DNA of 16,050 nucleotides, taken from Sulfurimonadaceae bacterium. GTDB taxonomy: Bacteria > Campylobacterota > Campylobacteria > Campylobacterales > Sulfurimonadaceae. The notes under the pieces are model-generated. The model worked only from the letters and a program-made list of their open reading frames with translations. It had not been told where the DNA came from and made no database searches. The position numbers and the translations under genes were made by a program. Where the stretch lies: positions 1-16,050 of the forward strand of contig JBFFUI010000044.1 of assembly GCA_041571435.1 (NCBI GenBank), read 5' to 3'. Below are positions 743 through 16,050 of this stretch, piece after piece; position 1 is the stretch's first letter, and the number at the start of each line of letters is the position of its first letter.

Positions 743-811
743 CATCACGATCTAAGAGCTATAAAGAATAAGGAGAGAAGGTTCTATAATTTTGCTCGTA
801 CATCTCCTTGT

Positions 812-879
812 GTATAACATTTAACTTGAAAATAAATTCCAGTCAGGGTAACTGTTTTCACTCCAAAGAGTGGCTATTT
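812..879 (-). mobile_element. Degenerate attC-like site downstream of lipoprotein 879..1223
   Basis: Minus strand AAATAGC-CACTCTTTGGAGTGAAAACAGTTACCCTGACTGGAATTTATTTTCAAGTTAAAT-GTTATAC. It starts at the stop codon, has inner inverted arms TGAAAA/TTTTCA, and is followed directly by an AAGGAG RBS-like sequence. Confidence 0.5.
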
Positions 880-1223
880 CATCGATCTCTAACTTCAATA
901 ATATGAGTAGGAGCATTTTCCCATTTTACTCTTTCAAAATGTCCTGAACATATGCCAGCTCTTGAAAGGTTATAAGAGTTTACCCCAGTGACTTTACCAT
1001 CATAAAGCCAAATGATATCAAATGTACTAACTCCAAAACTTGTTCCCGTTGTACAATATTGAATTGCTTCGTTTTTTCCTTTAAATTGTCTATTTTCGGG
1101 ATTGCCTAACTTTTTAATTACTGATGCTTTTGTATCACCTGGGTTGATTTCAAGTAATGCTTTGTTTTTTGTAACACAGCCTGAAAAAAATATAAGTAAT
1201 ATTGTTAAAATTATTTTTCTCAT
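879..1223 (-). CDS. Small outer-membrane lipoprotein, SmpA/BamE-like fold likely; probable gene cassette
   Basis: Likely start is ATG 1223 (MRKIILTILLIFFSGC, lipobox) rather than 1265, which lies inside the attC-like site. The 'GDTKASVIKKLGNP' motif is typical of SmpA/OmlA-like domains. Strongly AT-rich. Confidence 0.7.
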   Translation of the reverse strand: MRKIILTILLIFFSGCVTKNKALLEINPGDTKASVIKKLGNPENRQFKGKNEAIQYCTTGTSFGVSTFDIIWLYDGKVTGVNSYNLSRAGICSGHFERVKWENAPTHIIEVRDR

Positions 1224-1239
1224 TATTGTCCCTATCATG

Positions 1240-1312
1240 ATATAACCATTACAGATAGTAATCAAAAATCCATTTGCAGTTTTTTTAATCAGATTCTTTT
1301 TGTTTGTTAGTC
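1240..1312 (-). mobile_element. Degenerate attC-like site between the two lipoprotein genes
   Basis: 73 nt; minus strand GACTAAC...TGATTAAAAA...TTTTTGATTA...GTTATAT. It begins 5 nt after the stop of 1318..1617 and ends 16 nt before the next ATG. Confidence 0.55.
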
Positions 1313-1317
1313 TTACT

Positions 1318-1617
1318 TTACTCTTTTTTGTCTTTAGATGAATCAGCTAGACATTGAAAAGTTAATTCCGCATTTAATGGTGTCCAACCGCGAGATCCAT
1401 GTGTTTCCCAGCCCTTTTCAACCATGTACATTTTTCTTTCAAGACAATACCTATTTGCACGCTCAAGCGAAAGCCCTTTTACGTCAGCCCAACTTGGAAA
1501 CTGGCCACCCATTTCTGAGCTTACTCTGTATGTATCTTTTCCTACGGGGACTACATTGCTAACAGACGAGCAACCAGCGAAAAGGAAAAGAAAACAATAA
1601 AGTAAAGTTTTTTTCAT
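1318..1617 (-). CDS. Hypothetical lipoprotein; probable gene cassette
   Basis: 99 aa; MKK-hydrophobic-FAGC lipobox; GAGG RBS; AT-rich; preceded by a GTTAGAC core site at 1643-1649. Confidence 0.75.
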   Translation of the reverse strand: MKKTLLYCFLFLFAGCSSVSNVVPVGKDTYRVSSEMGGQFPSWADVKGLSLERANRYCLERKMYMVEKGWETHGSRGWTPLNAELTFQCLADSSKDKKE

Positions 1618-1896
1618 ACTTCTTACCTCAGAATTATTTTTAGTCTAACTATTAATCGGTACACATTCTATACAACTAAATCTTAAATGTGGACTTAGCG
1701 GAACTTATGAAATGTTGCAAAAAAATGTTATTTGATTGCAGATTGTCCTATTTAGCTTGAATAGACAATAAGATGAGTAAGTGAATTTCAATTTTTATTC
1801 ATTTAAACGGCAAAAAAGCCCCTAAAACCGCCAAGAAGAACACAACTTGCATACCCCAAACCAGACTTTCAGAGTCAAAACAGACAAGGAAAATTT

Positions 1897-2271
1897 ATGG
1901 GAATCCCTCAACCAGCTTTTTATATGATGAAATGCCAACAATCTACGCCTCCGGGTATGCCGAAACCGTCATGCGTTACACCTCAGACGCAGGACCTTTA
2001 CCAGCACCTGGGTCAGTCACTGATGCAAAAAGGGATCATCGGTACGGTCCAGCCTATCCAGACAGGGTGTCTTAACCGCTGTAATACCGGTCCTGTGATG
2101 TTGGTCGAGCCGGGTCACTTTTTGTATGTCGGTCTGACAAAAGAGAAGATCGAAAGAATCATCGACGAGCACATCATCGGCGGCAACGTCGTCAGCGAAT
2201 ACCTGATTCCCGACGAGCTGTGGGACGAAGCGCTCTCGCCGGCTGACCTTATGAAACAGATGGGACGCTAG
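1897..2271 (+). CDS. Thioredoxin-like (2Fe-2S) ferredoxin
   Basis: 124 aa; four Cys (C13, C26, CLNRC); GP..LVEP...Y..LT.E.I..II.EHI.GG.VV signature; AAGGA RBS. Confidence 0.9.
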   Translation: MGIPQPAFYMMKCQQSTPPGMPKPSCVTPQTQDLYQHLGQSLMQKGIIGTVQPIQTGCLNRCNTGPVMLVEPGHFLYVGLTKEKIERIIDEHIIGGNVVSEYLIPDELWDEALSPADLMKQMGR

Positions 2272-2282
2272 AGCGTTTTACG

Positions 2283-2405
2283 CTACTGAAATGTTCTGAC
2301 AAGCAGGGCAGCCGTCAAGATCCAAATAGCGATGACAACGGCGGCGGCCGTTTTGGAGTGGGGGAGTGACATTAACGTTGTCTCTTTGGCTTTTTCTTTG
2401 CACTC
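2283..2405 (-). pseudogene. 3' remnant (last 40 codons plus stop) of a diverged YkvA/DUF1232 gene
   Basis: Translates to ECKEKAKETTLMSLPHSKTAAAVVIAIWILTAALLVRTFQ*, with 25/40 aa identical to the C-terminus of 4138..4509. No 5' part is present. Confidence 0.85.
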
Positions 2406-2591
2406 ATCCTCTACTCTTGCGCAACACAAGAGTGATCGTTCGCCTCCTAAACCCCTCCATCTTTAAAGTGAGAATAGCGTGCAAGAGCGATGTTTAACCT
2501 TCGTTGTACGCCTCATTTGTTACCATGTTTCAACGTCATCCTGAGGATGATGAATCACACTCTTATCACTGCACGCACAATCAAAAGGTTA

Positions 2592-3452
2592 ATGACTATG
2601 CATATGAAACATATAGTACAGGTTTTACACACATCATTATTGATACTACTCTTCCTAAACCCGCTTATGGCCTCTGAAAAACCTGAAAAGGCAGAAGAGA
2701 GTCCTCTTTCCAAGCCACTGATAGAGCGCTATATTTTAGATGAACTTAAATCGCTCCGCGTAGAACAGGAGCAGTTTAAAGCTACGGTTCAGACCACTGT
2801 CGCCAAAGGGCAGATAGAGCAGACCGACAGGGCGGCACGCTATATTACGGACACCATAGGCAATGTCTTTTACCTTATTGCCGGAGCGACCTCGCTGCTT
2901 ATCTTTGCAGGCTGGAATTCTCTACGCGACATCAGGAAAAAGACCGAACAGATCATTGAAGAGCGGATTCACGAGATCACTGAAAGATATAATGAATCCT
3001 TTGCGGCCTTACAGGAAAAACTGACGGAACAATCCGAAAAGGTCCTGGTGAACCAGAAGAAGATCTATGATACACAACTCATCCACTCGCTGTGGATGCG
3101 TGCGAATCTGGAGACTAATTTGCAGTCAAAGATCGAGATCTATGATGAGATACTTGAGGTCAATGCCATGGATGCAGAGGTCTATGCCTATAAAGCGGAT
3201 GCGGTCTTGGACCTTGACGAGTTTGAATGGGCACTCAACCTAAGCAACAAAGCCCTGGAGATCGATCCGCAATATGGCTATGCATTTTGGCAGCGGGCCT
3301 GTGCCAATGCCCAACTCGGTAACAAGAGCGAAGCGATCATAGACCTGAAAACGGCACTGCGCATCTCTCCGAACCTAAAAGATGAGACAGTGCATGAACC
3401 TTCCTTTGCGCCATTAACCGAGCTGGACGAGTTTAAACGACTCATCACCTGA
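2592..3452 (+). CDS. Membrane-anchored TPR-repeat protein
   Basis: Start probably ATG 2592, 2598 or 2604 after AAAGG; signal-like N-terminus; TM helix (VFYLIAGATSLLIFAGW); coiled coil; C-terminal TPRs (AYKADAVL..., ALEIDPQYGYAFWQRACANAQLG...AIIDLKTALRISP). Confidence 0.85.
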   Translation: MTMHMKHIVQVLHTSLLILLFLNPLMASEKPEKAEESPLSKPLIERYILDELKSLRVEQEQFKATVQTTVAKGQIEQTDRAARYITDTIGNVFYLIAGATSLLIFAGWNSLRDIRKKTEQIIEERIHEITERYNESFAALQEKLTEQSEKVLVNQKKIYDTQLIHSLWMRANLETNLQSKIEIYDEILEVNAMDAEVYAYKADAVLDLDEFEWALNLSNKALEIDPQYGYAFWQRACANAQLGNKSEAIIDLKTALRISPNLKDETVHEPSFAPLTELDEFKRLIT

Positions 3453-3473
3453 GCAGACGCCAAAGGCGTCGCT
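3452..3473. terminator. Hairpin between convergent TPR and DUF2391 genes
   Basis: AGC(A)GACGCC-AAA-GGCGTCGCT stem-loop directly after the TPR stop; the U-tract is weak. Confidence 0.45.
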
Positions 3474-3494
3474 TATCAAATAGTCAACCACTGT

Positions 3495-3890
3495 TTATTC
3501 TTTATCAAAGCTATCGGCAATGATAGCGCCCATAGATGCCGGCATTGATATTAAAACGAGACGTTTTAACGCAATAGCCGGCTCCGTCAGAAAAGGGAAC
3601 TTATCGAGTGCGATCAAAACAAGCGAGACGACTAAAGCCGTTATGAGGTATGCAATAACGATCCGGATCAAAAAAACCGGGACTCTGTATTTGATATTTG
3701 CCTGGAATATGCTCTCGTAGGCGTAAAGACTCAAGAAGACAACAGACAAACCGAAAACCAGCAGAAGGTTTGATAATGGAAGTGTCTCACCTAGTCTCCA
3801 TGCCTCTTCAGAGAATGAGATCGGAACCGCTAAAGCAAATGCCCCAATAGCAACTTGGCTTGCATCCTCTAAGTTAAAGCTCAAATTCAT
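3495..3890 (-). CDS. DUF2391-family integral membrane protein
   Basis: Start ATG 3890 after GGAGAG; ED..Q...GAF.LAVP..FSEE.W.LG motif, 4 TM segments, PASMGA...D.FDKE C-terminus. Confidence 0.8.
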   Translation of the reverse strand: MNLSFNLEDASQVAIGAFALAVPISFSEEAWRLGETLPLSNLLLVFGLSVVFLSLYAYESIFQANIKYRVPVFLIRIVIAYLITALVVSLVLIALDKFPFLTEPAIALKRLVLISMPASMGAIIADSFDKE

Positions 3891-4097
3891 ATTTCTCTCC
3901 AATGCGTCGTTATCTGTTTACCGTGCAACTTTTTTGTTTATGTAGTTGGCATTTTTGCGATCTTGATGAGTTGACTATCTATCCAACGAATATAGTAGCA
4001 ACATAATCCTGTATGACAATATGAGATTAGACAAAATATGCTTATTTTCTCATTCAAACGGGAGTTGGGAATGACTCAAAATCGTCTAAAAGAACAC

Positions 4098-4126
4098 CAC
4101 ATCATCGGTGGCAACGTTGTTACTAG
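4098..4126 (+). pseudogene. Internally deleted 3' remnant of the ferredoxin gene
   Basis: 4098-4122 matches 2170-2194 at 22/25 nt (HIIGGNVV; the differences are at third codon positions). It is followed directly by CTAG, equivalent to the ferredoxin stop at 2268-2271. Confidence 0.75.
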
Positions 4127-4137
4127 AGCCTCTTTCG

Positions 4138-4509
4138 CTAGTCTATGAGTTGAAGAAGCAGCACGGCCATCAGGATCCAAATAGCGATGACGACGACGGC
4201 GGCCGCTTTGGAGCGGGGAAGCGTTTCCAAGGTTGAGGCTTTTGCTTTTTCTTGGCACTCTTTCCAAACGGCTTCGGGTATGAGCCAGATAGCAAGCGCG
4301 ATGCCCAGCGGCACCAGCAAAAAGTCATCCAGGTACCCGATGACCGGAATAAAGTCGGGGATGAGGTCGATGGGGCTCAGCGCATAAGCGACGACGATGA
4401 CGGAGACGACCTTGGCCATAAGAGGTACATCTTTGTGGTGATAGGCGAGGTAGAGTGCATAGACGTTGTGCTTAAGCGCAATTGCCCATTGCTTTAGTCT
4501 ATCCATCAT
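4138..4509 (-). CDS. YkvA / DUF1232 family membrane protein
   Basis: Signature YALSPIDLIPDFIPVIGYLDD; AGGAG RBS. Confidence 0.92.
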   Translation of the reverse strand: MMDRLKQWAIALKHNVYALYLAYHHKDVPLMAKVVSVIVVAYALSPIDLIPDFIPVIGYLDDFLLVPLGIALAIWLIPEAVWKECQEKAKASTLETLPRSKAAAVVVIAIWILMAVLLLQLID

Positions 4510-4663
4510 GACGTTCTCCTGCCTGACATAACCACGCCTTTAGCCTTTTTTAGAGTGATGCTTTACGGAAGACCCATGACTGAAACACTCTATTTGTCGT
4601 TCTTACTATTGTACAGCAGGTATGTAAAAGAGGCCTAATAAAAATGAACTGGTACGTCTGTAA

Positions 4664-4693
4664 TTGCAATCTCCTTTTGAAGCCTGTTATAAT
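4664..4693 (+). promoter_or_regulatory. Sigma70 promoter of suhB
   Basis: TTGCAA-18 nt-TATAAT with extended -10 (TGtTATAAT), 29 nt upstream of the GTG start. Confidence 0.65.
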
Positions 4694-4722
4694 CAGACAA
4701 TAGAACCAAAAGGACGCACACC

Positions 4723-5490
4723 GTGTATGACGTCATCAAAACCATCGCCTTATCCGCCGGACCGCTTTTTATGGAGGGGTACACCCATGCCAAGACCATC
4801 ACCTACAAAAGTGCGGTCGACCTGGTCACCGAGTACGACGTAAATGTCGAACTGCTGCTCAAGGAGAAGCTCGCTGCCGCTTTCCCGGAGCACACGCTGG
4901 TGGGCGAGGAGACCAACGAGGGCATTACGCACCCCGACAAGGCGATCTACATCGACCCCATCGACGGCACGACCAACTTTGTCCACGGCATCCCTTTCTG
5001 CTGCATCTCCATCGGTATCTGGGAAGGCGGTGAAGCGGTTGCGGGCGTGGTCTATAACCCGGTGCTTGACGAGCTCTTTTATGCCGAAAAGGGGAAGGGG
5101 GTGACCTGCAACGGCGAGAACTTGCAGGTAAGCGAGGCGACGACGCTGGAGCGTTCGCTCATCGCGACGGGCTTTCCCTACACCAAGATCGAGCAGGGGG
5201 AGGACTTCCACTGGGTCATCAAAAGCATGGAAGCGCTGCTGCCCTACACCCGCGACATGCGGCGTCTGGGCTCGGCGGCGCTGGACCTCTGCTATGTGGC
5301 GCGCGGGACCTTCGAGGGGTATTACGAGGTGAACCTCAAGCCGTGGGACGTTGCGGCGGGCATCTTGATGGTGACGGAAGCAGGGGGCGCAGTCAGCCGC
5401 CGTGAGGGCGGGGCCTACCGGTTTGACGATCGCATCGTGGTGGCGTCCAACGGGCGTATCCACGAGGCCATCGTCGAGAAGCTGCGCTAG
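4723..5490 (+). CDS. suhB: Inositol monophosphatase family protein
   Basis: DLVTEYD, GEE, IDPIDGTTNFVHG, RRLGSAALDLCYVARG, LKPWDVAAG motifs; GTG start after AAAGGA. Confidence 0.93.
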   Translation: MYDVIKTIALSAGPLFMEGYTHAKTITYKSAVDLVTEYDVNVELLLKEKLAAAFPEHTLVGEETNEGITHPDKAIYIDPIDGTTNFVHGIPFCCISIGIWEGGEAVAGVVYNPVLDELFYAEKGKGVTCNGENLQVSEATTLERSLIATGFPYTKIEQGEDFHWVIKSMEALLPYTRDMRRLGSAALDLCYVARGTFEGYYEVNLKPWDVAAGILMVTEAGGAVSRREGGAYRFDDRIVVASNGRIHEAIVEKLR

Positions 5491-5516
5491 ATCTTTGACT
5501 GAGGTTCAACACCGGT
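5438..5516 (+). repeat. Direct repeat copy 1: suhB 3' end and downstream bases
   Basis: 5438-5500 matches 7380-7442 at 60/63 nt. After a 6-nt indel, 5507-5516 matches 7443-7452 at 9/10. Confidence 0.95.
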
Positions 5517-5534
5517 AATCAGCAAGAGCTCTTT

Positions 5535-6524
5535 TCAGGGCTGGGTTGTTAATGAACGGCGCACATAAATAAGAGCTATGAGTAAAAGCAAGGTTACGAG
5601 CCATCCCAAAATGTAGACGACCTTCGCGTGTTTGGCTTTCGCTTTTTCCCGCCAGCCAAGTGGACGAATGCCCTTGACATCAAAAACGATCTTGCTGGCC
5701 AGGTTGACACATACAACGTTGACCATGAGCAGCAACCCGGCACCGGTAGCGAGACTGCTATTTCCAGATCCCAGCATCAGCCCCAGTGCTGCTGCCGGCG
5801 GAAGTAACGCTACGGCGACCATGACGCCTACCAGCACGCTTGACAGACCCGTTGTGAGGGACAATGCCGCTGCGGCGCCCGATGCCAGTGCCAGAGCGGC
5901 GGAATCGAGGCCGACGACGGTGCGCAACACAAGTTCATGATTTGTTGCGTCAAAAGACCAAAACATCCCCAGACCGGCAGGCACGGCCACGGCCAGCAGC
6001 ATTCCGGCAACGAGGGTTTGCACCGATTTTCGAATGAGGGACAGGTCACCCATGGCCGTGCCAAGACTTAGCGCAAGATTTGGCCCGAGCAACGGCGCGA
6101 TCACCATCGCGCCGATCACGACAGCGACGTTGTTTGTAATAAGACCTATCGCAGCCACCAAGGATGACAATATGACCAGAACGACAAAATTCAAATCAAG
6201 CCGTACCCCTTTTTCAACCCCTTCGTAGAGCGCTTCCCGCGCTTCGGTCGCAGCATCTTCCTGCTTGCGTTCCTCTTCGTCCGGTTTAGGCAACGACACA
6301 TCTACGGGGAGGACCACGATGTGGGCAGCCGGCTGTTTGTCCAAGAGATTCTGCAGGGCGTCCAGTACCAACTGGAGTTTGTCATCGCTTACCAGCATTC
6401 GCATCAGCTGCATGCCATCTTCTTCGACAACGCCAAGCCGAAAATCCTGCACTTCCTCCTTTTTAGCTATCGCCAAAACGGTGTCTGAACTGTCTGCATC
6501 GGCGATTATTTCGACATACTTCAT
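5535..6524 (-). CDS. TIGR00341 / DUF389 family membrane protein
   Basis: Start ATG 6524 after GAAGGA; motifs AVVIGAMVIAPLLGP and LVGVMVAVALLPPAA; about 7 TM segments. Confidence 0.88.
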   Translation of the reverse strand: MKYVEIIADADSSDTVLAIAKKEEVQDFRLGVVEEDGMQLMRMLVSDDKLQLVLDALQNLLDKQPAAHIVVLPVDVSLPKPDEEERKQEDAATEAREALYEGVEKGVRLDLNFVVLVILSSLVAAIGLITNNVAVVIGAMVIAPLLGPNLALSLGTAMGDLSLIRKSVQTLVAGMLLAVAVPAGLGMFWSFDATNHELVLRTVVGLDSAALALASGAAAALSLTTGLSSVLVGVMVAVALLPPAAALGLMLGSGNSSLATGAGLLLMVNVVCVNLASKIVFDVKGIRPLGWREKAKAKHAKVVYILGWLVTLLLLIALIYVRRSLTTQP

Positions 6525-6552
6525 GATTGTGATTTCCTTCACCTCATAGCAC

Positions 6553-6588
6553 CGGCTAACGAGAGATGGGGTGTCGTTAGCCGTTTTT
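6553..6588 (+). terminator. Intergenic stem-loop with plus-strand T-tract
   Basis: CGGCTAACGA-11 nt-TCGTTAGCCG (perfect 10-bp stem) followed by TTTTT on the + strand. Confidence 0.55.
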
Positions 6589-6601
6589 AGCTGTTCTTGC
6601 G

Positions 6602-6853
6602 CTAGACCTTCTTAACGGTACTGATGATAGATAACAAAATTACGGCGCCGATAGTGGCCATAATGATAGCGCCTACAAAGCCGCCTGTCGTGATGCCGAA
6701 CAGACCGAATACAAAACCACCCAATACAGCGCCAACGATGCCCACAATGATATTGCCTATGAGGCCAAATCCTCTGCCTTTCATTATGATGCCGGAAAGC
6801 CATCCGGCCAGTGCGCCGATTGCCAAAAATATGATCAAGCTGGTAATATCCAT
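6602..6853 (-). CDS. GlsB/YeaQ/YmgE (transglycosylase-associated) stress-response membrane protein
   Basis: Start ATG 6853 after GAGGAG; IGALAGWL...G.GLIGNIIVGIVGA.LGG...A.IGAVILL signature. Confidence 0.92.
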   Translation of the reverse strand: MDITSLIIFLAIGALAGWLSGIIMKGRGFGLIGNIIVGIVGAVLGGFVFGLFGITTGGFVGAIIMATIGAVILLSIISTVKKV

Positions 6854-6866
6854 GATGACTCCTCGC

Positions 6867-7082
6867 CTATTTTTTAACGAAAATGAAGATGCCGACAACA
6901 AAACTGGCAGCAGCCGCGATGTACAGGGTCATGACCTTGTCTGTATCAGAACCTGTAACAGCCTGGCTTATCTGCGAACCGACAGAACCGGACAACTGAT
7001 ACCCCCATAATCCAAGGCCAACGCCTATAACCACCAGGGCAATACCTATGATTTTCATTGTCGCTCCCGAACCTATTGCCAT
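6867..7082 (-). CDS. DUF3185-like small membrane protein
   Basis: 71 aa; AGGAG RBS; KIIGIAL...G..L...GY...S.GSQIS..VTGS.TDK pattern; 2 TM segments. Confidence 0.8.
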   Translation of the reverse strand: MAIGSGATMKIIGIALVVIGVGLGLWGYQLSGSVGSQISQAVTGSDTDKVMTLYIAAAASFVVGIFIFVKK

Positions 7083-7251
7083 GTTGAACTCCTATAGTTG
7101 AAAGGGATGAGATACTTTTAGCATTACTGCCAACTGTTTAATATACCGGTATAAGTCTGAAATCAACCTAATACCACATATAAAAAATATTTATCTCTTT
7201 GCAGTCAAAAGCTATAGTCCTACGTCTTACTCTGACTGATTTTTTGGAGGA

Positions 7252-7372
7252 TTGCAGATCATCCCCTCGATGATAGCGCAACTGGCTCGTCTCCTACCGC
7301 GAGGTCGACGCCATCAAACGCTCCCTCTCGCGCATCTCGTTGCGACTCAGCTGCCCCAACGCGCTGGGCGAT
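7252..7372 (+). pseudogene. Internal fragment of an ACP phosphodiesterase (AcpH/DUF479)-like gene
   Basis: LQIIPSMIA-(frameshift)-NWLVSYREVDAIKRSLSRISLRLSCPNALGD recalls the AcpH C-terminal 'M...NWL.SY......I...L.R.S.RL...N.L' segment. It is GC-rich inside an AT-rich spacer and has no start. Confidence 0.6.
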
Positions 7373-7452
7373 CGGGTACTGGTGGCGTCCAACGGGCGTA
7401 TTTACGAGGCCATCGTCGAGAAGCTGCGCTAGATCTTCGACTCAACAGCGGT
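7370..7452 (+). repeat. Direct repeat copy 2: suhB 3' remnant
   Basis: Encodes DRVLVASNGRIYEAIVEKLR* versus suhB DRIVVASNGRIHEAIVEKLR*; offset 1942 nt. Confidence 0.95.
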
Positions 7453-7466
7453 TTACTCGGCTTGTC

Positions 7467-10163
7467 TCAAAACGCTTTTTTCAGTATTCGGATACGCAGC
7501 TGTTTTTCGACCTCAATGATAAAAAACATCGTGACGCCGATACCAAGCATCAACATAGTGTCAAACAGTCCGACCCCTTCAGTCTCAAAAACGCTTTGGA
7601 GCCATGGCACATAGGTAATGGCAATCTGTCCGATGATAACGACGATGATAGATATCCAGACAGCACGGGTGGCACGTACGGCTTTGCCGCTCAAGGCACT
7701 CCCGTACATATTGCGGATGAAGAGGAGATGGAATATTTCCAGCACGACCAGCGTGTTCACGGCTAGCGTTCGGGCAAGGCTTTCGGAATAGCCGCTTGAG
7801 ACAGCATATTCGTAAATGCCGAATATGCCGGCCAGAAACAGACTGGCGACCAACACAATATGCCACATAAGGCCGGCACTCAGCAGTGACTCACTGCGGG
7901 GTCGGGGCGGGCGCTGCATGGTGTTCTCTTCCGTTGGCTCGAAGGCCAGAGCGATGCCGAGTGTCACGGCGGTGATCATGTTCACCCACAAGATCTGGAT
8001 CGGGGTGATGGGCAGGTTCAGTCCGAGCATCAGTGCGAGGATGACCGTCATGGCCTCGCCGGCATTGGTCGGCAGTGTCCAGCTGATGACTTTTTTAATG
8101 TTGTCGTATACGGTTCGGCCTTCGCGCACTGCCGCGACAATCGATGCGAAATTGTCATCGGCCAACACGACCTCCGATGCCTCTTTTGCAGCCTCGCTGC
8201 CGGTTTTTCCCATGGCAATGCCGACCCCCGCGCGCTTAAGCGCGGGGGCATCATTGACGCCGTCACCCGTCATTGCCACCGTCATACCATTGGCCTGCAG
8301 TGCCATCACCAGGCGTAATTTGTGCTCCGGACTTGTGCGTGCAAAGATCCCCGTCTGTCTGACGACGGATTCGAGTGCGGCGTCGTCGAGCTCATTGAGC
8401 TCTGCACCGGTCAACAGGGCGTCGTTATTCCGCAGCCCCAGCTGTTTGGCGATAGCGACGGCCGTGACGGCATGGTCACCGGTGATCATTTTGACGTCAA
8501 TACCGGCACGGTGACACTCGGCGATGGCCTCAATGGCTTCAGGCCGCGGCGGATCGATCAGACCGGCCAGCCCCAGAAATATCAGCGAGTCGTCAATATC
8601 GGCATGTTCAAGCACGGTATGTTCGGGGCGAACCGGTTTGGTCGCGAAGGCCAGGAGCCGTTGGCCTTGTGCGGCTATTGTATTGACCTGCTCTTGCCAG
8701 TATGCGACATCCAGCGGTTCCGTCCCATTGCTGCCGCTGCGTTGTTCGATACACATGGCGAGCACTGTTTCCGGCGCCCCCTTGACAAAGATGAAGGCAT
8801 TGTTCTCATGGTCATGGTTAAGGGTCGCCATGTATTTGTGTTGCGTATCGAAAGGGATCACATCGGTACGTGTCCATTGGTCTCTTGCCCCGTGACAATC
8901 GATACCGGACTTTCCGGCAAACGCCAGCAGGGCGGCCTCCATGGGGTCGCCCTGAGCGGACCACGTATTCTCCTTTCGTACAAGTTCGGAATCATTGCAG
9001 AGTGCCGCCGTTCGTCCCAGCTCCTGTAATGCAGTATGATCCGAAATAGAGACTCTCTGCTCATTCACTCTTATGTCGCCCGAAGGTTCATAACCGGTTC
9101 CCCCGATATCGAAGCGCACAGATGCTGTGGCTACCGAGGCGACTTTCATCTCATTGCGGGTCAGGGTGCCCGTTTTGTCAGAGCAGATGACGGAGACTGA
9201 ACCGAGTGTTTCGATCGCCGGCAAACGGCGAACGATGGCGTTTCGCCGTGCCATGGCCTGCACACCTACCGCCATTGTTATCGTCAATACGGCAGGCAGT
9301 CCCTCGGGAATGGCGGCAACGGAGAGCCCCACCACAGCCATGAATATCGTGCTGAAATCGTAATGCATAACGAAGTAGCCTAACATCAAGATAAGCGAGG
9401 CAACGGCAAGAATGAAGAGCGTAAGCCACTTGGCCAAGACTGCCATCTGTGCAACCAGGGGTGTGTTAAGTGTCTGTACTTCAGAGAGTAGACCGCTTAT
9501 GCGGCCGATCTCTGTGTCAGCCCCCGTGGCAACCACCACGCCCAAGCCTTGTCCGCTCGCAACCGTCGTCCCGCTGAATCCCATGCAGAAACGGTCACCG
9601 AGCGGTGCTTCTGCAGCGACCTCTTTGGAACGCTTTTCGACAGCCACGGACTCGCCGGTAAGAATCGCTTCCTGGATCTGCAGACCGTGGGTTTCCAGTA
9701 AGCGCAGATCGGCCGGTACCTTGTCACCGGCTTCGAGCAGGACGATATCGCCGGGAACCAACAGTTCGCCCGCTACGGTTTGACGCTTGCCGTCACGTAT
9801 GACAGAGGCACGCAGTGCCAGCATCTGCCGTATGGCATCCATCGCTTTTTCGGCTTTTCCCTCCTGAATAAAACCGATGACGGCATTGATGATGACCACG
9901 GCAACAATGACAGCCGTATCAATAACATGTCCCAGCAGCAGCGTAATGGCGGCGGCTCCAAGGAGGACATAGATAAGGATGTTGTGAAAGTGGGAAATAA
10001 AACGCAGGATTACATTTCTGCGCGGCGGTTCCGGAAGCCTGTTCGGTCCGACATCGGACAGCCTTTGCTCCGCATCGGCTGCACTCAGTCCTGCCGTCGT
10101 TGACTTCAGGGCGGACAATGTCTGCTGCGATGTTTGGTTATGCCAGTCATGAACCCTTTTCAT
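7467..10163 (-). CDS. Cation-transporting P-type ATPase, P2A-like (Ca2+/Na+/other cation)
   Basis: 898 aa; TGES, AAIPEGLP, DKTGTLT, KGAPE, DPPR, MITGD, TGDGVNDAPAL, QILWVN motifs. Confidence 0.95.
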   Translation of the reverse strand: MKRVHDWHNQTSQQTLSALKSTTAGLSAADAEQRLSDVGPNRLPEPPRRNVILRFISHFHNILIYVLLGAAAITLLLGHVIDTAVIVAVVIINAVIGFIQEGKAEKAMDAIRQMLALRASVIRDGKRQTVAGELLVPGDIVLLEAGDKVPADLRLLETHGLQIQEAILTGESVAVEKRSKEVAAEAPLGDRFCMGFSGTTVASGQGLGVVVATGADTEIGRISGLLSEVQTLNTPLVAQMAVLAKWLTLFILAVASLILMLGYFVMHYDFSTIFMAVVGLSVAAIPEGLPAVLTITMAVGVQAMARRNAIVRRLPAIETLGSVSVICSDKTGTLTRNEMKVASVATASVRFDIGGTGYEPSGDIRVNEQRVSISDHTALQELGRTAALCNDSELVRKENTWSAQGDPMEAALLAFAGKSGIDCHGARDQWTRTDVIPFDTQHKYMATLNHDHENNAFIFVKGAPETVLAMCIEQRSGSNGTEPLDVAYWQEQVNTIAAQGQRLLAFATKPVRPEHTVLEHADIDDSLIFLGLAGLIDPPRPEAIEAIAECHRAGIDVKMITGDHAVTAVAIAKQLGLRNNDALLTGAELNELDDAALESVVRQTGIFARTSPEHKLRLVMALQANGMTVAMTGDGVNDAPALKRAGVGIAMGKTGSEAAKEASEVVLADDNFASIVAAVREGRTVYDNIKKVISWTLPTNAGEAMTVILALMLGLNLPITPIQILWVNMITAVTLGIALAFEPTEENTMQRPPRPRSESLLSAGLMWHIVLVASLFLAGIFGIYEYAVSSGYSESLARTLAVNTLVVLEIFHLLFIRNMYGSALSGKAVRATRAVWISIIVVIIGQIAITYVPWLQSVFETEGVGLFDTMLMLGIGVTMFFIIEVEKQLRIRILKKAF

Positions 10164-10348
10164 TACTTTCCTTGTTCGACATGATAGAGGATGCGTTTCG
10201 GACTCTGCTGTGACGCCATCCTTGTTTTATGTACCGGGCTTTAATCAGCGTTGGGAAACCCGTCACAATGTCAGGGATCTATTGCTTCGTATCATCCGAT
10301 CTACAGTTCAACATACGCCTCAAAGCAGTCTGATACGAGATGCCTGTA

Positions 10349-12694
<2,346 letters not shown>

Positions 12695-12702
12695 TCAGCG
12701 TT

Positions 12703-14832
12703 TTAGAGCAGTTTCAGGCGTTTGAGTCTCAGGGCATTGGCGATGACGGAGACGGAGCTGAAGCTCATCGCGGCAGCGGCGATCATCGGTGAGAGGAGTA
12801 TGCCGAAGAAGGGGTAGAGCAGACCCGCAGCGACAGGGACACCCGCGGAGTTGTAGATGAAGGCGAAAAAGAGGTTCTGTTTGATGTTGCGCATGGTGGC
12901 CCGGCTTAAGCGTCTCGCCCTGACGATACCCCGAAGGTCCCCTTTGACCAGGGTGACACCGGCACTCTCCATCGCAACGTCGGTGCCCGTACCCATGGCG
13001 ATGCCGATGTGGGCCTGCGCCAGAGCAGGGGCATCGTTGATCCCGTCACCAGCCATGGCGACGATATGCCCTTTGGCTTGCAGTTTTTTGATGATCTCGG
13101 CTTTTTGGTCCGGCATCACTTCGGCATAGACGTTGTCGATGGCCAGCGTCCCGGCGATCGCCTGGGCGGTCAGATGGTTGTCCCCTGTCAGCATGACGAT
13201 CTCGATCCCCTGGGCCTGAAGGTCGCGAACGGCCTGTGCGCTGGTCTCTTTGAGCGGATCGGCAACAGCGATCAGACCGGCCGCTTTGGCGTCGATGGCG
13301 ATCAGCATGACGGTGTTGCCCTGAGAGCGCAGGGCCTCTGCCTGCTTCAGCAGCGTATCGGCCTGGATGTTGAGGCTTTTTTCGAGCAGCTTGCGTGTCC
13401 CCACTGCCACCGTATGCCTCTCGACATCACCGGTAATGCCCATACCTGTAACGGACTGGAAGTTAACAGTTTCGGCCAGGGCAATGCCTCTCGCCTGGGC
13501 ACCTTGCACAATCGCCGCCGCCAAAGGGTGCTCGCTTGCACGTTCCAGACTGGCGGCGAGACGCAGCACCTCCTCTTCGCTGAATCCCTCTTCTGCCTGC
13601 ACGGTGATCAGTTTCGGTCTGCCTTCGGTCAGGGTCCCTGTCTTGTCGACGACAAGGGTGTCGACCTTCTCCATTATCTCAAGCGCTTCGGCATTTTTTA
13701 TCAGGACGCCGGCCGTGGCGCCGCGTCCTGTCGCGACCATGATCGAGATCGGCGTCGCAAGTCCAAGCGCGCAGGGACAGGCGATCATAAGGACGGCAAC
13801 CGCATTGACAAGGGCATGGGCCAGCTGCGGTTCGGGGCCTACCGTCCACCAGATGCCAAAGGTTATCAGTGCGATAGCGATGACGGCCGGCACAAAATAG
13901 CCCGAGACGACATCGGCCAGTTTCTGGATCGGTGCGCGGGAACGCTGCGCTTCGGAGACCATTGCGATGATCTGCGAGAGCAGGGTGTCGGCACCGACTT
14001 TTTCCGCCTTCATCAGCAGTGTGCCGGTACCGTTGATCGTCGCGCCGATGATGTGGTCTCCTGCAGACTTCGCTACCGCAAGAGGCTCTCCGGTGATCAT
14101 CGACTCGTCCACGTTGCTTTCGCCTTTGACGACACTGCCGTCTACGGGTATTTTCTCTCCGGGCCGGATACGAAGCAGGTCGCCGGGCTGCACTTCTTCC
14201 AGGGCAATGTCATGTTCCAAGCCTTCCTCTTTTACAAGGTGGGCCGTGTTCGGGGCCAGTTTGAGCAGCAGGGTGATGGCGGCACCGGTCTGGGCACGGG
14301 CCCGCAGTTCAAGGACCTGTCCCAGAAGTACCAGTACCGTGATGACGGCTGCCGCTTCGAAGTAGACCGCGACCAGGCCATCCTCTGTCTGCATGACCGA
14401 GGGGAAGAGCTGCGGCAGCATGAGTGCGACGACGCTGTAACTCCAAGCGACCGAGATACCCAGTGTGATCAGCGTGAACATGTTGAGGTTCATGGTCTTC
14501 AGTGAGTTCCAGCCACGGACGAAAAATGGCCAGCCGCCCCACAGGACGACAGGGGTAGCAAGAAGAAACTCTGTCCACTGCACACTCTTCATGGAGAGTG
14601 TAGCGGGGAGCCATGGTGCCAACATCTCGGTTGCCATGGCCAGGATGAAGACAGGGAGTGTCAGTACGGCACTGATCCAGAAACGGCGGCGCATGTCGGT
14701 AAGCTCTTCGTTTTCAGTATCGGTTTTTACCTGCACCGGTTCAAGGGCCATGCCGCATTTCGGACAGGCACCGGGATGGTCCTGCCTGATCTCGGGGTGC
14801 ATCGGACAGGTGTAGAGTGTTTCGTTTTTCAT
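12703..14832 (-). CDS. copA: Copper-translocating P1B-type ATPase
   Basis: N-terminal YTCPMHPEI...CPKCGM metal-binding domain; [27 protein letters not shown] and M..SS Cu(I)-site motifs. Confidence 0.95.
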
Positions 14833-15197
14833 GGTGATACCACCTTTGTCGTGACTTCGAGGATATGACCGTCGGGATCTCCGAAACAGAAGCCTTTGGC
14901 ATCGGAACGACTGTATTCGGACATATTGTTGCGGATCTCTGGCGAGTCGCCGTAGGAAATGCCTCTGACGGTGATATGGCTCAAAATACTGTCGTATTCG
15001 CTGGCTGAAGCGTGAAAGAGGTAGTGCGCCGCTTTGCGCTCCTGCCGCTTCTCAAAGTAGAGTTTGGTCGTCTCATCGACGTATAGGACTTCACGGCTCC
15101 CTTCTGTCTCGCCTTCTCTGAAACCGAAGGCCTCGGCATAGAACTGTGCTGACGCCTTGTTGTCTGAGCAGGGGACGATCTGACGGTCGAGTTTCAT
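14829..15197 (-). CDS. VOC / glyoxalase-bleomycin resistance family protein
   Basis: MKLD...V.C.D...SA.FY...FG, H..F, G..F.DPDGH.LEV pattern; AAGGAG RBS; ATGA overlap with copA. Confidence 0.88.
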
Positions 15198-15323
15198 GGT
15201 CTACTCCTTTAAAAGGAAGTGCCTACTCTAAAAAATAGCACCACTCTTCTTAGAAGGTTGTCTGGTCTTGGAACTATGTAAAAAAGTTAAGTGAGTCTAT
15301 TATGCAGATATACCCGACGCACG

Positions 15324-15339
15324 GCGTGCGGCAGCGGGT
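15324..15339 (-). other. Right half of a GC-rich hairpin (15313-15339) downstream of the helicase-like gene
   Basis: Plus strand ACCCG-A-CGCACG-G-CGTGCG-GCAG-CGGGT forms nested inverted repeats just past the stop at 15354. There is no clear U-tract. Confidence 0.3.
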
Positions 15340-15353
15340 CGCTCAAAGGAGGG

Positions 15354-16050
15354 TTATTTAGGGGTGTCGCCTTTTTTGACGGTCGGCATCTTAATGACGC
15401 GAGGGGCCCGTTTGGGTGCCTCTTGGGCACTCTCTTTTTTCGGTTTGTTGCGCCAGTCGCCGCCGCTTCTGTCCGCGTCGGAATGCTTCTTGTCCCATGG
15501 CTTTTTCTCACCTTTGTTGTCCCAAGACTTCTTTTCACCGCGGTTTTTGTCCCATGGTTTCTTCTCACCCTGATCGTCTTTGTTCCAAGGCTTGCTGCCG
15601 TCTTGCTTTTTGGCTCTGTATTTAGGGTTCTGGCGTTTCTCATCTTCGGTTCGCGGCGTGCCGTCATGGCGGTGGTTGCGTTCGCCTGTCTTGCCGGAGA
15701 AGATCGGTTTGCCGTTTTCGTCTTTACCGAGGTATTTGGACTCTTTTTTCTTTTTGGCATCAGCTTTGGCGCGTTTTTCGTTGCGCTCTTCCTGGTTCTT
15801 CTTGTTGTACTCCTGGCGCTCTTTCAGCTCTTTTGACGCTTCACGGTCTTTGACATACGAGGCCGGCTCAAATCCGGCGATGACCTCTTTGGTGAGGGTC
15901 CGTTTCATCACGGTCTCTATCTTGTAGAGCTCCTGCTGCTCTTTGTCGTCGGCAAGAAGCAGGGCGTAGGTCTTGGTCTGGTTGAGGCGTTTGAGGTACT
16001 TCTCCGGACTCTCTGCAAGGTCAAGGCTTATGATCATGTCGCATTTTACC
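15354..16050 (-). CDS. C-terminal part of a DEAD/DEAH-box helicase-like protein with a long basic tail (5' end beyond the window)
   Basis: The frame is open to 16050 (VKCDMIISLDLAESPEKYLKRL). The segment corresponds to D.VINYDLP..PE.Y.HRIG, followed by 'L..IE..MKR.L..E.I.GFEP' as in RhlE-type helicases, then a K/R/D/E-rich tail. Confidence 0.65.
   Translation of the reverse strand, partial: VKCDMIISLDLAESPEKYLKRLNQTKTYALLLADDKEQQELYKIETVMKRTLTKEVIAGFEPASYVKDREASKELKERQEYNKKNQEERNEKRAKADAKKKKESKYLGKDENGKPIFSGKTGERNHRHDGTPRTEDEKRQNPKYRAKKQDGSKPWNKDDQGEKKPWDKNRGEKKSWDNKGEKKPWDKKHSDADRSGGDWRNKPKKESAQEAPKRAPRVIKMPTVKKGDTPK
15490..15599 (-). repeat. Four coding tandem repeats G(E/S)K(K)(P/S)W(D/N)K
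   Basis: Units start (+ strand) at 15490, 15517, 15547 and 15580, with consensus TTGTCCCATGGYTTYTTCTCACC; periods are 27, 30 and 33 nt. Confidence 0.85.

Follow-up and report, generated by a model that had tools for sequence, protein, structure and literature searches.

How two neighbouring groups of genes, each enclosed by a duplicated gene end, came to stand side by side with no recombinase gene near them is the question raised by the stretch of Sulfurimonadaceae DNA analysed here (16,050 nt of contig JBFFUI010000044.1, called the window). A preliminary description had seen in them a recurring and possibly undescribed route of accessory-gene gain, such as the homology-anchored capture of incoming DNA. 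Homology-anchored capture indeed turns out to be the best class of mechanism, while the kind of scar is already known from Helicobacter and other bacteria. In our view the repeats are probably the scars of a recombinase-free joining of strain variants, in which one homologous anchor was combined with one illegitimate joint.

The two direct repeats are real and lie where they had been placed. They are recovered in a self-BLAST of the 2.16-Mb genome with E values of 1e-17 and 6e-21, and are thus not chance matches. The features of the two modules are collected in Table 1.

Table 1. Features of the two modules and their flanks (positions in the window; a point marks features given no strand).
Feature	Position	Strand	Basis
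fdx, intact small ferredoxin-like gene, 124 aa	1897..2271	+	ORF list; relatives
Repeat 1, copy 1: fdx 3' end, spacer and DUF1232 3' remnant	2170..2409	.	self-comparison, alignment
DUF1232 3' remnant, ~42 codons, allele type 'a'	2283..2409	-	allele comparison
65 nt, source not found, at illegitimate joint 2409/2410	2410..2474	.	genus comparison
TPR320 segment, TPR protein (ORF 2490-3452)	2475..3509	+	TPR families in Pfam
DUF2391 membrane-protein segment (ORF 3495-3902)	3494..3975	-	Pfam
122 nt, source not found	3976..4097	.	genus comparison
fdx remnant: 23 nt, 73-nt gap, then stop context and diverged spacer	4098..4137	+	alignment
DUF1232, intact, 123 aa, allele type 'b'	4138..4509	-	Pfam PF06803
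suhB-like inositol monophosphatase, intact, 255 aa	4723..5490	+	PF00459, E 1e-68
Repeat 2, copy 1: last 60 nt of suhB and 10 nt	5431..5500	+	alignment
DUF389 membrane protein	5535..6542	-	Pfam
GlsB/YeaQ-type (6602-6901) and DUF3185 (6867-7082) small membrane proteins	6587..7145	-	Pfam
acpH internal remnant (acyl carrier protein phosphodiesterase), residues ~136-176 of 214	7254..7372	+	comparison with relatives
Repeat 2, copy 2: suhB 3' remnant joined to acpH remnant at microhomology CGA	7373..7442	+	alignment
P-type cation ATPase, tail to tail with suhB remnant	7467..10163	-	Pfam

The first module

Repeat 1 covers the tail-to-tail ends of fdx and DUF1232. Copy 1 is made up of the 3' 102 nt of fdx, followed by 11 nt of spacer and, on the minus strand, 127 nt from the 3' end of DUF1232; it is colinear in alignment with the single junction found in the relatives G003 and G007. 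Copy 2 (4098-4264) is shorter than copy 1 by 73 nt (167 against 240 nt), and the identity between the two is about 75-79%. The pieces detected initially, D9 (2170-2192/4098-4120, 91%) and D1 (2301-2405/4156-4260, 79%), with spacings of 1855/1928 nt, both belong to this alignment. G003 and G007 keep an uninterrupted fdx/DUF1232/suhB order and represent the empty site for this module.

Two allele types of DUF1232 are present. The remnant 'a' is 86-87% identical to G004 and G007 and 78% identical to the window's own full-length gene, while the 3' end of the latter, type 'b', reaches 83% identity with G003 and 77-78% with G004 and G007. Since the two ends are more similar to other species than to each other, two alleles have been joined here, and the remnant is no fresh duplicate.

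It is important to point out that the resident genes fdx, DUF1232 and suhB are whole, as had been claimed, being of full length compared to relatives. For fdx, whose match to PF01257 is weak and under the curated Pfam cut-off, the length is the same in G003 and G004, with 90-94% amino acid identity.

The TPR320 segment is 87-88% identical to sequences in G004 (contig C10) and G009 (C128). The DUF2391 segment is 87% identical to the same G009 contig, where its tail-to-tail arrangement with TPR320 is also present, amid core genes. Moreover, G004 has TPR320 immediately upstream of fdx, as does a ~95%-identical contig of another study (X5). A simple drop of cargo into a duplicated target does not agree with this placement elsewhere, nor with the gene remnant in module 2 described below. 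The stretches at the joints for which no source was found are 65, 122 and 108 nt long; the first has no match among 15 genomes of the genus, and the sole match of the second is 74 nt at 74% to G010 (C79).

The second module

Repeat 2 had been described as a longer duplicate (D2, 5414-5500/7356-7442, 85%, spacing 1942 nt). The true duplicate is only 70 nt, as the sequence to the left of 7373 is acpH and not suhB. The proposal that the repeats derive from gene 3' ends accordingly holds for the fdx/DUF1232 and suhB ends, and fails for the left part of D2. The identity is 90.5% over 74 nt in the self-BLAST and 95% over 63 nt. The two copies are closer to each other than to any relative compared, and their final 35 nt are identical and differ from every one of these relatives. 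At the protein level, the intact suhB is 87-91% identical to G003, G004, G013 and G009.

At the joint 7372/7373, the interior of acpH precedes the suhB end, with a 3-nt overlap, CGA. We take this gene to be acpH from reading its protein sequence rather than from a family search. In G003, G013 and G006 suhB is followed by the full gene, to which the remnant is 84-86% identical. The ATPase beyond the suhB remnant is 84% identical to G003, where it lies 10 kb from suhB.

For DUF389, a DNA match is absent among the genomes of the genus examined. Its nearest metagenome relatives are 84-85% identical in amino acids and are found on short contigs of low G+C; in one of them (L127) DUF389 adjoins the GlsB gene, as in the window. 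None of the relatives in the source search adjoins suhB or acpH, and the parental haplotype was not recovered. The GlsB/DUF3185 segment has matches of 78-82% identity elsewhere in G004, G005 and G009.

Mobility genes and the proposed signature

The description of the modules as lacking a recombinase is borne out, as Pfam assigns none of the 16 main ORFs to a recombinase family. Pfam searches of these ORFs yielded no integrase or transposase, and neither a tRNA nor terminal or flanking inverted repeats were found in the window; there is no Rfam match at E 0.1, and the joints have no core sequence in common. The inserts measure 1.7-1.9 kb and are flanked by direct repeats of more than 30 bp (240/167 and 70 nt). 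The cargo families are TPR, DUF2391, DUF389, Transgly_assoc and DUF3185, with no restriction-modification genes among them; the small membrane-protein cargo noted earlier is thus present (the last four families), together with one TPR protein. Homologues of DprA and ComEC are encoded in the genome, and the same, nearly universal families match 10-11 of 14 control genomes.

Two shared traits had been read as a signature of the process. The stop codons at 2268, 4123, 5487 and 7429 do lie within CTAGA, a pentamer that closes 29 of 1895 crude ORFs. It does not mark the junctions, however: the joints are elsewhere, and suhB of G003, G006 and G013 and fdx of G004 end otherwise. A similar scar in another species, L053, has a TGA stop, and neither this scar nor one in G006 contains CTAGA. 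Considered as a signal, the motif is under-represented, with 7 occurrences in the window against 18.6 expected. As to the similar spans (1855/1928 and 1942 nt), these other scars span 900 and 1604 nt. We treat the likeness of the spans as a coincidence, and the CTAGA context also looks incidental.

The expected recurrence throughout the genome did not materialize. Among 29 short local direct-repeat pairs in the census, mostly paralogous neighbours or tandem repeats, only the two of the window are 3'-end fragments of this type, and no enrichment of the signature was found in the genome outside the window's contig. One further pair (C7, 31073-31235/33595-33757) is a duplicated gene boundary, that is, the 3' end of a gene with the 5' end of the next.

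Scars and gene orders in relatives

The suggestion that the process recurs at a hotspot fares better. Between fdx and suhB, six genomes show five different contents. In L053, which is another Sulfurimonadaceae species, the scar lies at suhB and the genes run suhB, cytochrome c, redoxin remnant, suhB remnant, diguanylate cyclase and redoxin, and the two remnants meet at 1315/1316 with an overlap of GTA. Its sister species L049 and L046 hold both putative parental orders of this scar. G006 has, 1.6 kb from a full CDGSH-type gene, a 238-nt fragment of that gene's 3' end, so that a gene end is duplicated around cargo downstream of fdx; in G013 fdx is followed by CDGSH and the fragment is absent. 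The repeat lengths over the four scars are 240, 70, 52 and 238 nt. Two insertions of G004 at the hotspot have no flanking repeat at E 1e-4, which means that the signature is not general there. An overlap of 3 nt at two joints (CGA, GTA) is, statistically, a weak observation.

Origin of the repeats

Since the genome is a metagenome bin of 66 contigs, we have also considered that the locus is a chimera of co-occurring strains, joined by the assembler at shared words. In X3, another sample from the same study, the depth is 35-39 on the cargos compared to 52-63 on the flanks, and Logan contigs break within the 35-mer that is identical in both copies of repeat 2. The links from suhB to the cargo and from the remnant to the ATPase rest therefore on the 16-kb contig itself. 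However, contigs of X3 span 2235-4279 and 5466-7433 with 0 differences, and those of X1 span 2158-5374 and 5466-7433, such that every illegitimate joint is crossed in two samples with 0-2 differences. Furthermore, the identical runs in repeat 1, at most 18 nt long, are too short to mislead an assembler, and a chimera could not create the joint between acpH and suhB. An artefact is thus exceedingly improbable. The depth, together with 11-18 loose letters at contig ends that would suit a strain lacking cargo 1, gives only a hint of a cargo-free sub-population in X3. The order suhB then ATPase, which would be the empty site of module 2, appears only in 18 loose letters of one X6 contig.

According to the reading we prefer, two versions of a hypervariable chromosomal region would share fdx, DUF1232 and suhB, and differ in the genes between and beside them. 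DNA of the incoming version would, probably after uptake from a related strain, pair homologously on one side and be joined illegitimately on the other at a few bases of microhomology; the joint would fall within a conserved gene, close to where the shared homology ends. The intact gene copy would then come from one partner and the short 3' stub from the other, each scar presumably recording one event. An equal product would result if the incoming piece were circularized before a single crossover brought it in, and the sequence is unable to separate the linear from the circle route. Either side of each module may be the one that came in. That the neighbouring genes are intact would follow if only those products survive in which the tightly packed tail-to-tail genes are whole. 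The postulated parent orders are TPR320/DUF2391/truncated fdx and DUF389/GlsB/DUF3185/truncated acpH; parental haplotypes of the same species were not recovered.

A tandem duplication in place could also have started the process, running at microhomology from within one conserved gene into the following one, after which the redundant copies decayed or were replaced by cassettes and only stubs were left. A downstream gene that precedes the end of the upstream one, as at 7372/7373 and at 1315/1316 of L053, is the product of such a duplication, and an origin within the same lineage predicts the identical last 35 nt of the suhB ends, unlike all relatives compared. It would require at least two more replacements per scar, though, ending exactly at the stubs. 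The DUF1232 ends differ as much as alleles from separate species do, a single copy is present in G003 and G007, and the material enclosed by the copies has nothing in common, all of which makes this course of events unlikely. We consider it very unlikely that the modules are decayed integrative islands that a tyrosine recombinase once placed in the 3' ends of fdx/DUF1232 and suhB. On this view every island would have supplied a replacement gene end, as is seen in many islands, and would later have lost its integrase. Integration into a gene 3' end with a substitute end is the classic signature of an island, and the atypical G+C of the region (32-63% vs 47.7% for the genome) would fit. Neither an integrase nor its remnant is present in the window, though, the only two PF00589 matches of the genome being on other contigs (C11 and C2). 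The joints have no common core, the repeats vary from 52 to 240 nt, the cargo consists of ordinary chromosomal genes that stand among core genes in G009, and the acpH remnant at the joint would not be expected for an att site.

Relation to known systems

Insertions in which the target duplication is long and variable and no mobility gene is present are on record for Helicobacter, Campylobacter, Haemophilus, Neisseria and others (Furuta, Abe & Kobayashi 2010, PMC2853133; also Nobusato et al. 2000, Gene 259:99, as cited), and a proposal that traces 3' gene remnants to homology-facilitated illegitimate recombination (HFIR) is likewise in print (PMC5361080), so the idea of an undescribed route is not supported. 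In the cases detailed in the 2010 survey, the likeness extends to inserts of a few kb flanked by variable direct repeats of tens to hundreds of bases, to a relative with a single repeat copy at the empty site, to the absence of a mobility gene, and to some repeats that overlap gene 3' ends. These cases are mostly from naturally competent bacteria, epsilon-proteobacteria included. The survey screened for restriction-modification cargo, whereas the window holds membrane proteins and a TPR protein; this cargo was a screening criterion of the survey and not part of the mechanism. The inserts of the window stay below 20 kb. Other differences are that repeat 1, at about 78%, is far more diverged than most of the tabulated cases compared, and that module 2 has an extra gene remnant at its joint and an empty site that was not recovered.

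HFIR in transformation (de Vries & Wackernagel 2002; Prudhomme et al. 2002; Meier & Wackernagel 2003, cited in PMC5361080) has been proposed to leave the orphan 3' gene remnants of Vibrio T6SS arrays (Kirchberger et al. 2017, PMC5361080). As outlined in that paper, it would share with the window a single homologous anchor, putative in our case, within a conserved gene, together with an illegitimate joint, the additive stacking of cassettes and the stubs that displaced genes leave; two of the joints also show microhomology (CGA at 7372/7373, GTA in L053). It differs in that the window is known from sequence alone, and in that the joint falls inside the putative anchor gene, which leads to a duplication rather than a deletion.

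A variable slot between conserved genes, with strain-specific contents and no recombinase, is also what characterizes the minimal mobile elements of Neisseria, where alternative cassettes between conserved flanking genes are exchanged by transformation. To our knowledge, these elements move by a double homologous crossover and leave no duplicated gene ends.

The locus offers a clean natural example of accessory-gene gain independent of mobile-element enzymes in free-living Campylobacterota, beyond restriction-modification systems and pathogens. With four scars in three species within one hypervariable region, and putative parental orders that still exist in relatives, it is a usable test bed for one-sided capture against circle integration. 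One can also speculate, though we regard it as improbable, that integrase-free stacking of cassettes is regular in the Sulfurimonadaceae at borders of conserved and variable sequence, where microhomology-closed circles with 50-240 nt of both flanking gene ends would cross in by RecA. The circle route would then amount to an integron-like accretion of accessory genes, recurring at suhB in at least two species. For annotation, short gene-end stubs of this kind are best taken as recombination scars, and neither as pseudogenes of separate origin nor as att sites.

Finally, a possible terminator of DUF1232, formed by a hairpin with a T-run, overlies the fdx remnant (4113-4095, minus strand), but terminator-like sites are not in excess in the terminator scan (5 found vs 6.2 in shuffles).

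Results and Discussion

The two direct repeats reported in the preliminary description are real. They are recovered by a repeat finder and also when the whole genome is compared with itself by BLAST, where the two main pairs reach E-values of 1e-17 and 6e-21. All illegitimate joints are crossed by contigs assembled independently from public runs. Contigs from X1, possibly the source sample, cover 2158-5374 and 5466-7433. X3 was sampled in the same study, and its contigs span 2235-4279 as well as 5466-7433, at 0-2 differences. Both sets stop within the 35 nt that are identical between the copies of repeat 2, and the order suhB, cargo (DUF389, GlsB, DUF3185), remnant, ATPase is therefore taken from the original contig. 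The genome bin comprises 2.16 Mb in 66 contigs with a G+C content of 47.7%; the window is the entire contig C44 (16,050 nt), along which G+C varies from 32% to 63%.

Features of the window and of its repeats
Feature	Position	Description
Gene order by Pfam, left part		p159(-), two low-G+C lipoprotein genes(-), fdx(+), TPR protein(+), DUF2391(-), DUF1232(-)
Gene order by Pfam, right part		suhB-type inositol monophosphatase(+), DUF389(-), GlsB/YeaQ-type(-), DUF3185(-), P-type ATPase(-), KatG(-), CopA(-), glyoxalase(-), p227(-)
p159 tandem repeat	162-336	93-nt repeat, 80% identity; encodes a charged KEWEEI...REWAE motif twice
Lipoprotein gene	1318-1617	low G+C (32-35%); lies within 879-1617
Intergenic element	1634-1754	conserved, ~110 nt, between lipoprotein gene and fdx
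Repeat 1, copy 1	2170-2409	runs from the intact fdx into a 127-nt DUF1232 3' stub
Between repeat 1 copies		65 nt without known source, TPR gene, DUF2391, 122 nt without known source
Repeat 1, copy 2	4098-4264	23 nt of fdx, 73 nt missing, stop context kept, then intact DUF1232
Repeat-finder pair	2170-2192/4098-4120	91%
Repeat-finder pair	2301-2405/4156-4260	79%
Repeat-finder pair	5414-5500/7356-7442	85%
suhB end	5431-5500	last 60 nt and 10 nt beyond the stop
Putative acpH piece	7254-7372	internal (residues about 136-176 of 214)
suhB remnant	7373-7442	sole suhB part of the second copy; matches 5431-5500
p227 tandem repeats	15487-15578	lysine-rich

In the uninterrupted site, seen in two relatives (the complete genome G003 and G007), fdx, a small ferredoxin-like gene with a weak Pfam match, and DUF1232 stand tail to tail with 11 nt between them, ahead of suhB. 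The window holds this fdx/DUF1232 junction twice. Its two DUF1232 ends are 78% identical to each other (85/109); copy 1 has 86-87% identity to G004 and G007, and copy 2 has 77-78% to these two but 83% to G003. The window thus brings two allele types side by side, and repeat 1 is not a recent in-genome duplicate.

The cargo of this first module (TPR320 and DUF2391) is not foreign within the genus. In G009 the two genes lie tail to tail amid core genes (valS, gatB/yqeY-like, xseB and metX, names read from translations). TPR320 is immediately upstream of fdx in G004, and a contig of X5, from a different study, has the same order (TPR320 3' end, 109 letters, fdx) at ~95% identity. Accordingly, the module can equally be read as an fdx-plus-stub piece set before a resident array of TPR320, DUF2391, decayed fdx and DUF1232.

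At the second module, the repeat copies are 90.5% identical over 74 nt and 95% over 63 nt, and share a 35-nt stretch that is unlike every relative compared. Ahead of the suhB remnant lies a piece of the gene found next after suhB in G003, G013 and G006, which we read from its sequence as a probable acpH; the two pieces join with a three-base overlap, CGA. DUF389 has no DNA match among 15 genus genomes, and its best metagenome relatives (84-85% amino acid identity) are on low-G+C contigs, in one of which (L127) it again adjoins a GlsB gene. The GlsB and DUF3185 pair occurs at other places in G004, G005 and G009. A contig of X6, from another study, has suhB-like letters immediately before 7380 and continues into the ATPase end, a weak hint that an order with suhB tail to tail with the ATPase exists.

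The region around fdx and suhB is a hotspot where the scar, a duplicated gene end, recurs. Six genomes show five different contents of the interval between the two genes (shared by G003 and G007, and one each in G004, G006, G009 and the window genome). In L053, from another Sulfurimonadaceae species, the order is suhB, cytochrome c, redoxin 3' remnant, 52-nt suhB 3' remnant, diguanylate cyclase and full redoxin, the remnants joining with a GTA overlap; sister species have the simple orders suhB, cyclase, redoxin (L049) and suhB, cytochrome c (L046). Downstream of fdx, G006 has 238 nt from the 3' end of a CDGSH-type gene (87% identity), 1.6 kb from the full gene, which in G013 is tail to tail with fdx. 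A suhB 3' remnant is present in 2 of the 20 suhB loci tested, 8 of which have only ~1.5 kb of flank. Two insertions in G004 at the hotspot have no flanking repeat, which counts against generality.

The reported absence of a recombinase holds, as none of the 16 window ORFs matches a recombinase family in Pfam; the genome carries two PF00589 genes, which lie on C11 and C2. The window has no tRNA and no Rfam match, and a repeat search of it gave no inverted repeat around either cargo. The four scars, with repeat lengths of 240, 70, 52 and 238 nt, have no common core. The CTAGA stop context had been put forward as a shared signature, but it lies within the repeats and not at the joints, and is missing from the L053 and G006 scars. 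It occurs less often in the window than expected (7 against 18.6) and ends 1.5% of crude ORFs; we regard it as an ending (CGC TAG A) that two genes have by chance.

Given coexisting strains with different orders, one event per scar is the simplest account. DNA of one arrangement would pair with the other via a shared conserved gene, and its far end would join at a microhomology just within the anchor gene or its neighbour. The product would hold the intact gene from one partner, the stub from the other and the accessory genes of both. A circularised fragment entering by a single crossover gives the same product, as does tandem duplication followed by cassette replacement, although the latter requires more steps. 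A downstream gene ahead of the upstream gene's end, as at the acpH/suhB joint, is the order that results from a duplication joint, a circle joint or a donor end rejoined into the anchor gene. Survivorship accounts for the intact state of the neighbouring genes, since fdx and DUF1232 are just 11 nt apart and both are spared only by events that duplicate the junction. The genome has DprA and ComEC homologues, which are little informative on competence.

Such a route, suggested to be possibly undescribed, is of a kind already known under the names insertion with long target duplication and homology-facilitated illegitimate recombination. The former, first described by Helicobacter genome comparison, was later seen in Campylobacter, Haemophilus, Neisseria and others, most of them naturally competent; it involves no mobility gene, and repeat length varies (PMC2853133). 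The latter has been put forward to account for cassettes that are stacked, with 3' remnants, in Vibrio (PMC5361080). To these cases the locus adds non-RM cargo, a free-living sulfur oxidiser as host, repeat copies that are strongly diverged and several scars clustered at one hotspot.

Recurrence throughout the genome was not borne out: elsewhere it has just one similar local repeat, on C7, which duplicates a gene boundary. This repeat (G000:C7:31073-31235 and 33595-33757; 163 nt, 74%) duplicates the end of a prepilin-peptidase-like gene together with the beginning of an lptF/G-like gene (names read from translations); the second copy, 2.5 kb downstream, yields a 168-aa ORF whose N-terminus is the same. 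In G006, the fdx-suhB interval of 9 kb contains several broken genes, and the hotspot is therefore also a site of gene decay. At L052 (G006:C15, 10001-12203), a frameshift or stop interrupts suhB, and acpH consists of three frame-shifted pieces.

By its flanks, the nearest relative is G002 (90-94% identity at 1-746 and 13042-16050), which has no match to the window fdx, DUF1232, suhB, ATPase or katG. At 55-63% G+C (genome, 47.7%), much of the contig, within 750-13040, is possibly accessory DNA specific to the strain, with many genes for metals and oxidative stress (P-type ATPase, KatG, CopA). The sole genus match of the tabulated lipoprotein gene is on G009:C61 (L033), which also holds the GlsB and DUF3185 pair; these are separate in the window and may once have been neighbours elsewhere. 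The intergenic element, without tRNA or Rfam matches, has a second copy at G000:C7:25255-25357 (83%) and is present in at least six genus genomes; one G003 copy (1044559-1044670) is ~450 nt upstream of an integrase gene (1045121). Finally, the right end of the contig (15430-16050) matches the start of C7 (G000:C7:1-621) at 95%, which reflects either a second p227 copy or contigs that are strain variants or neighbours.
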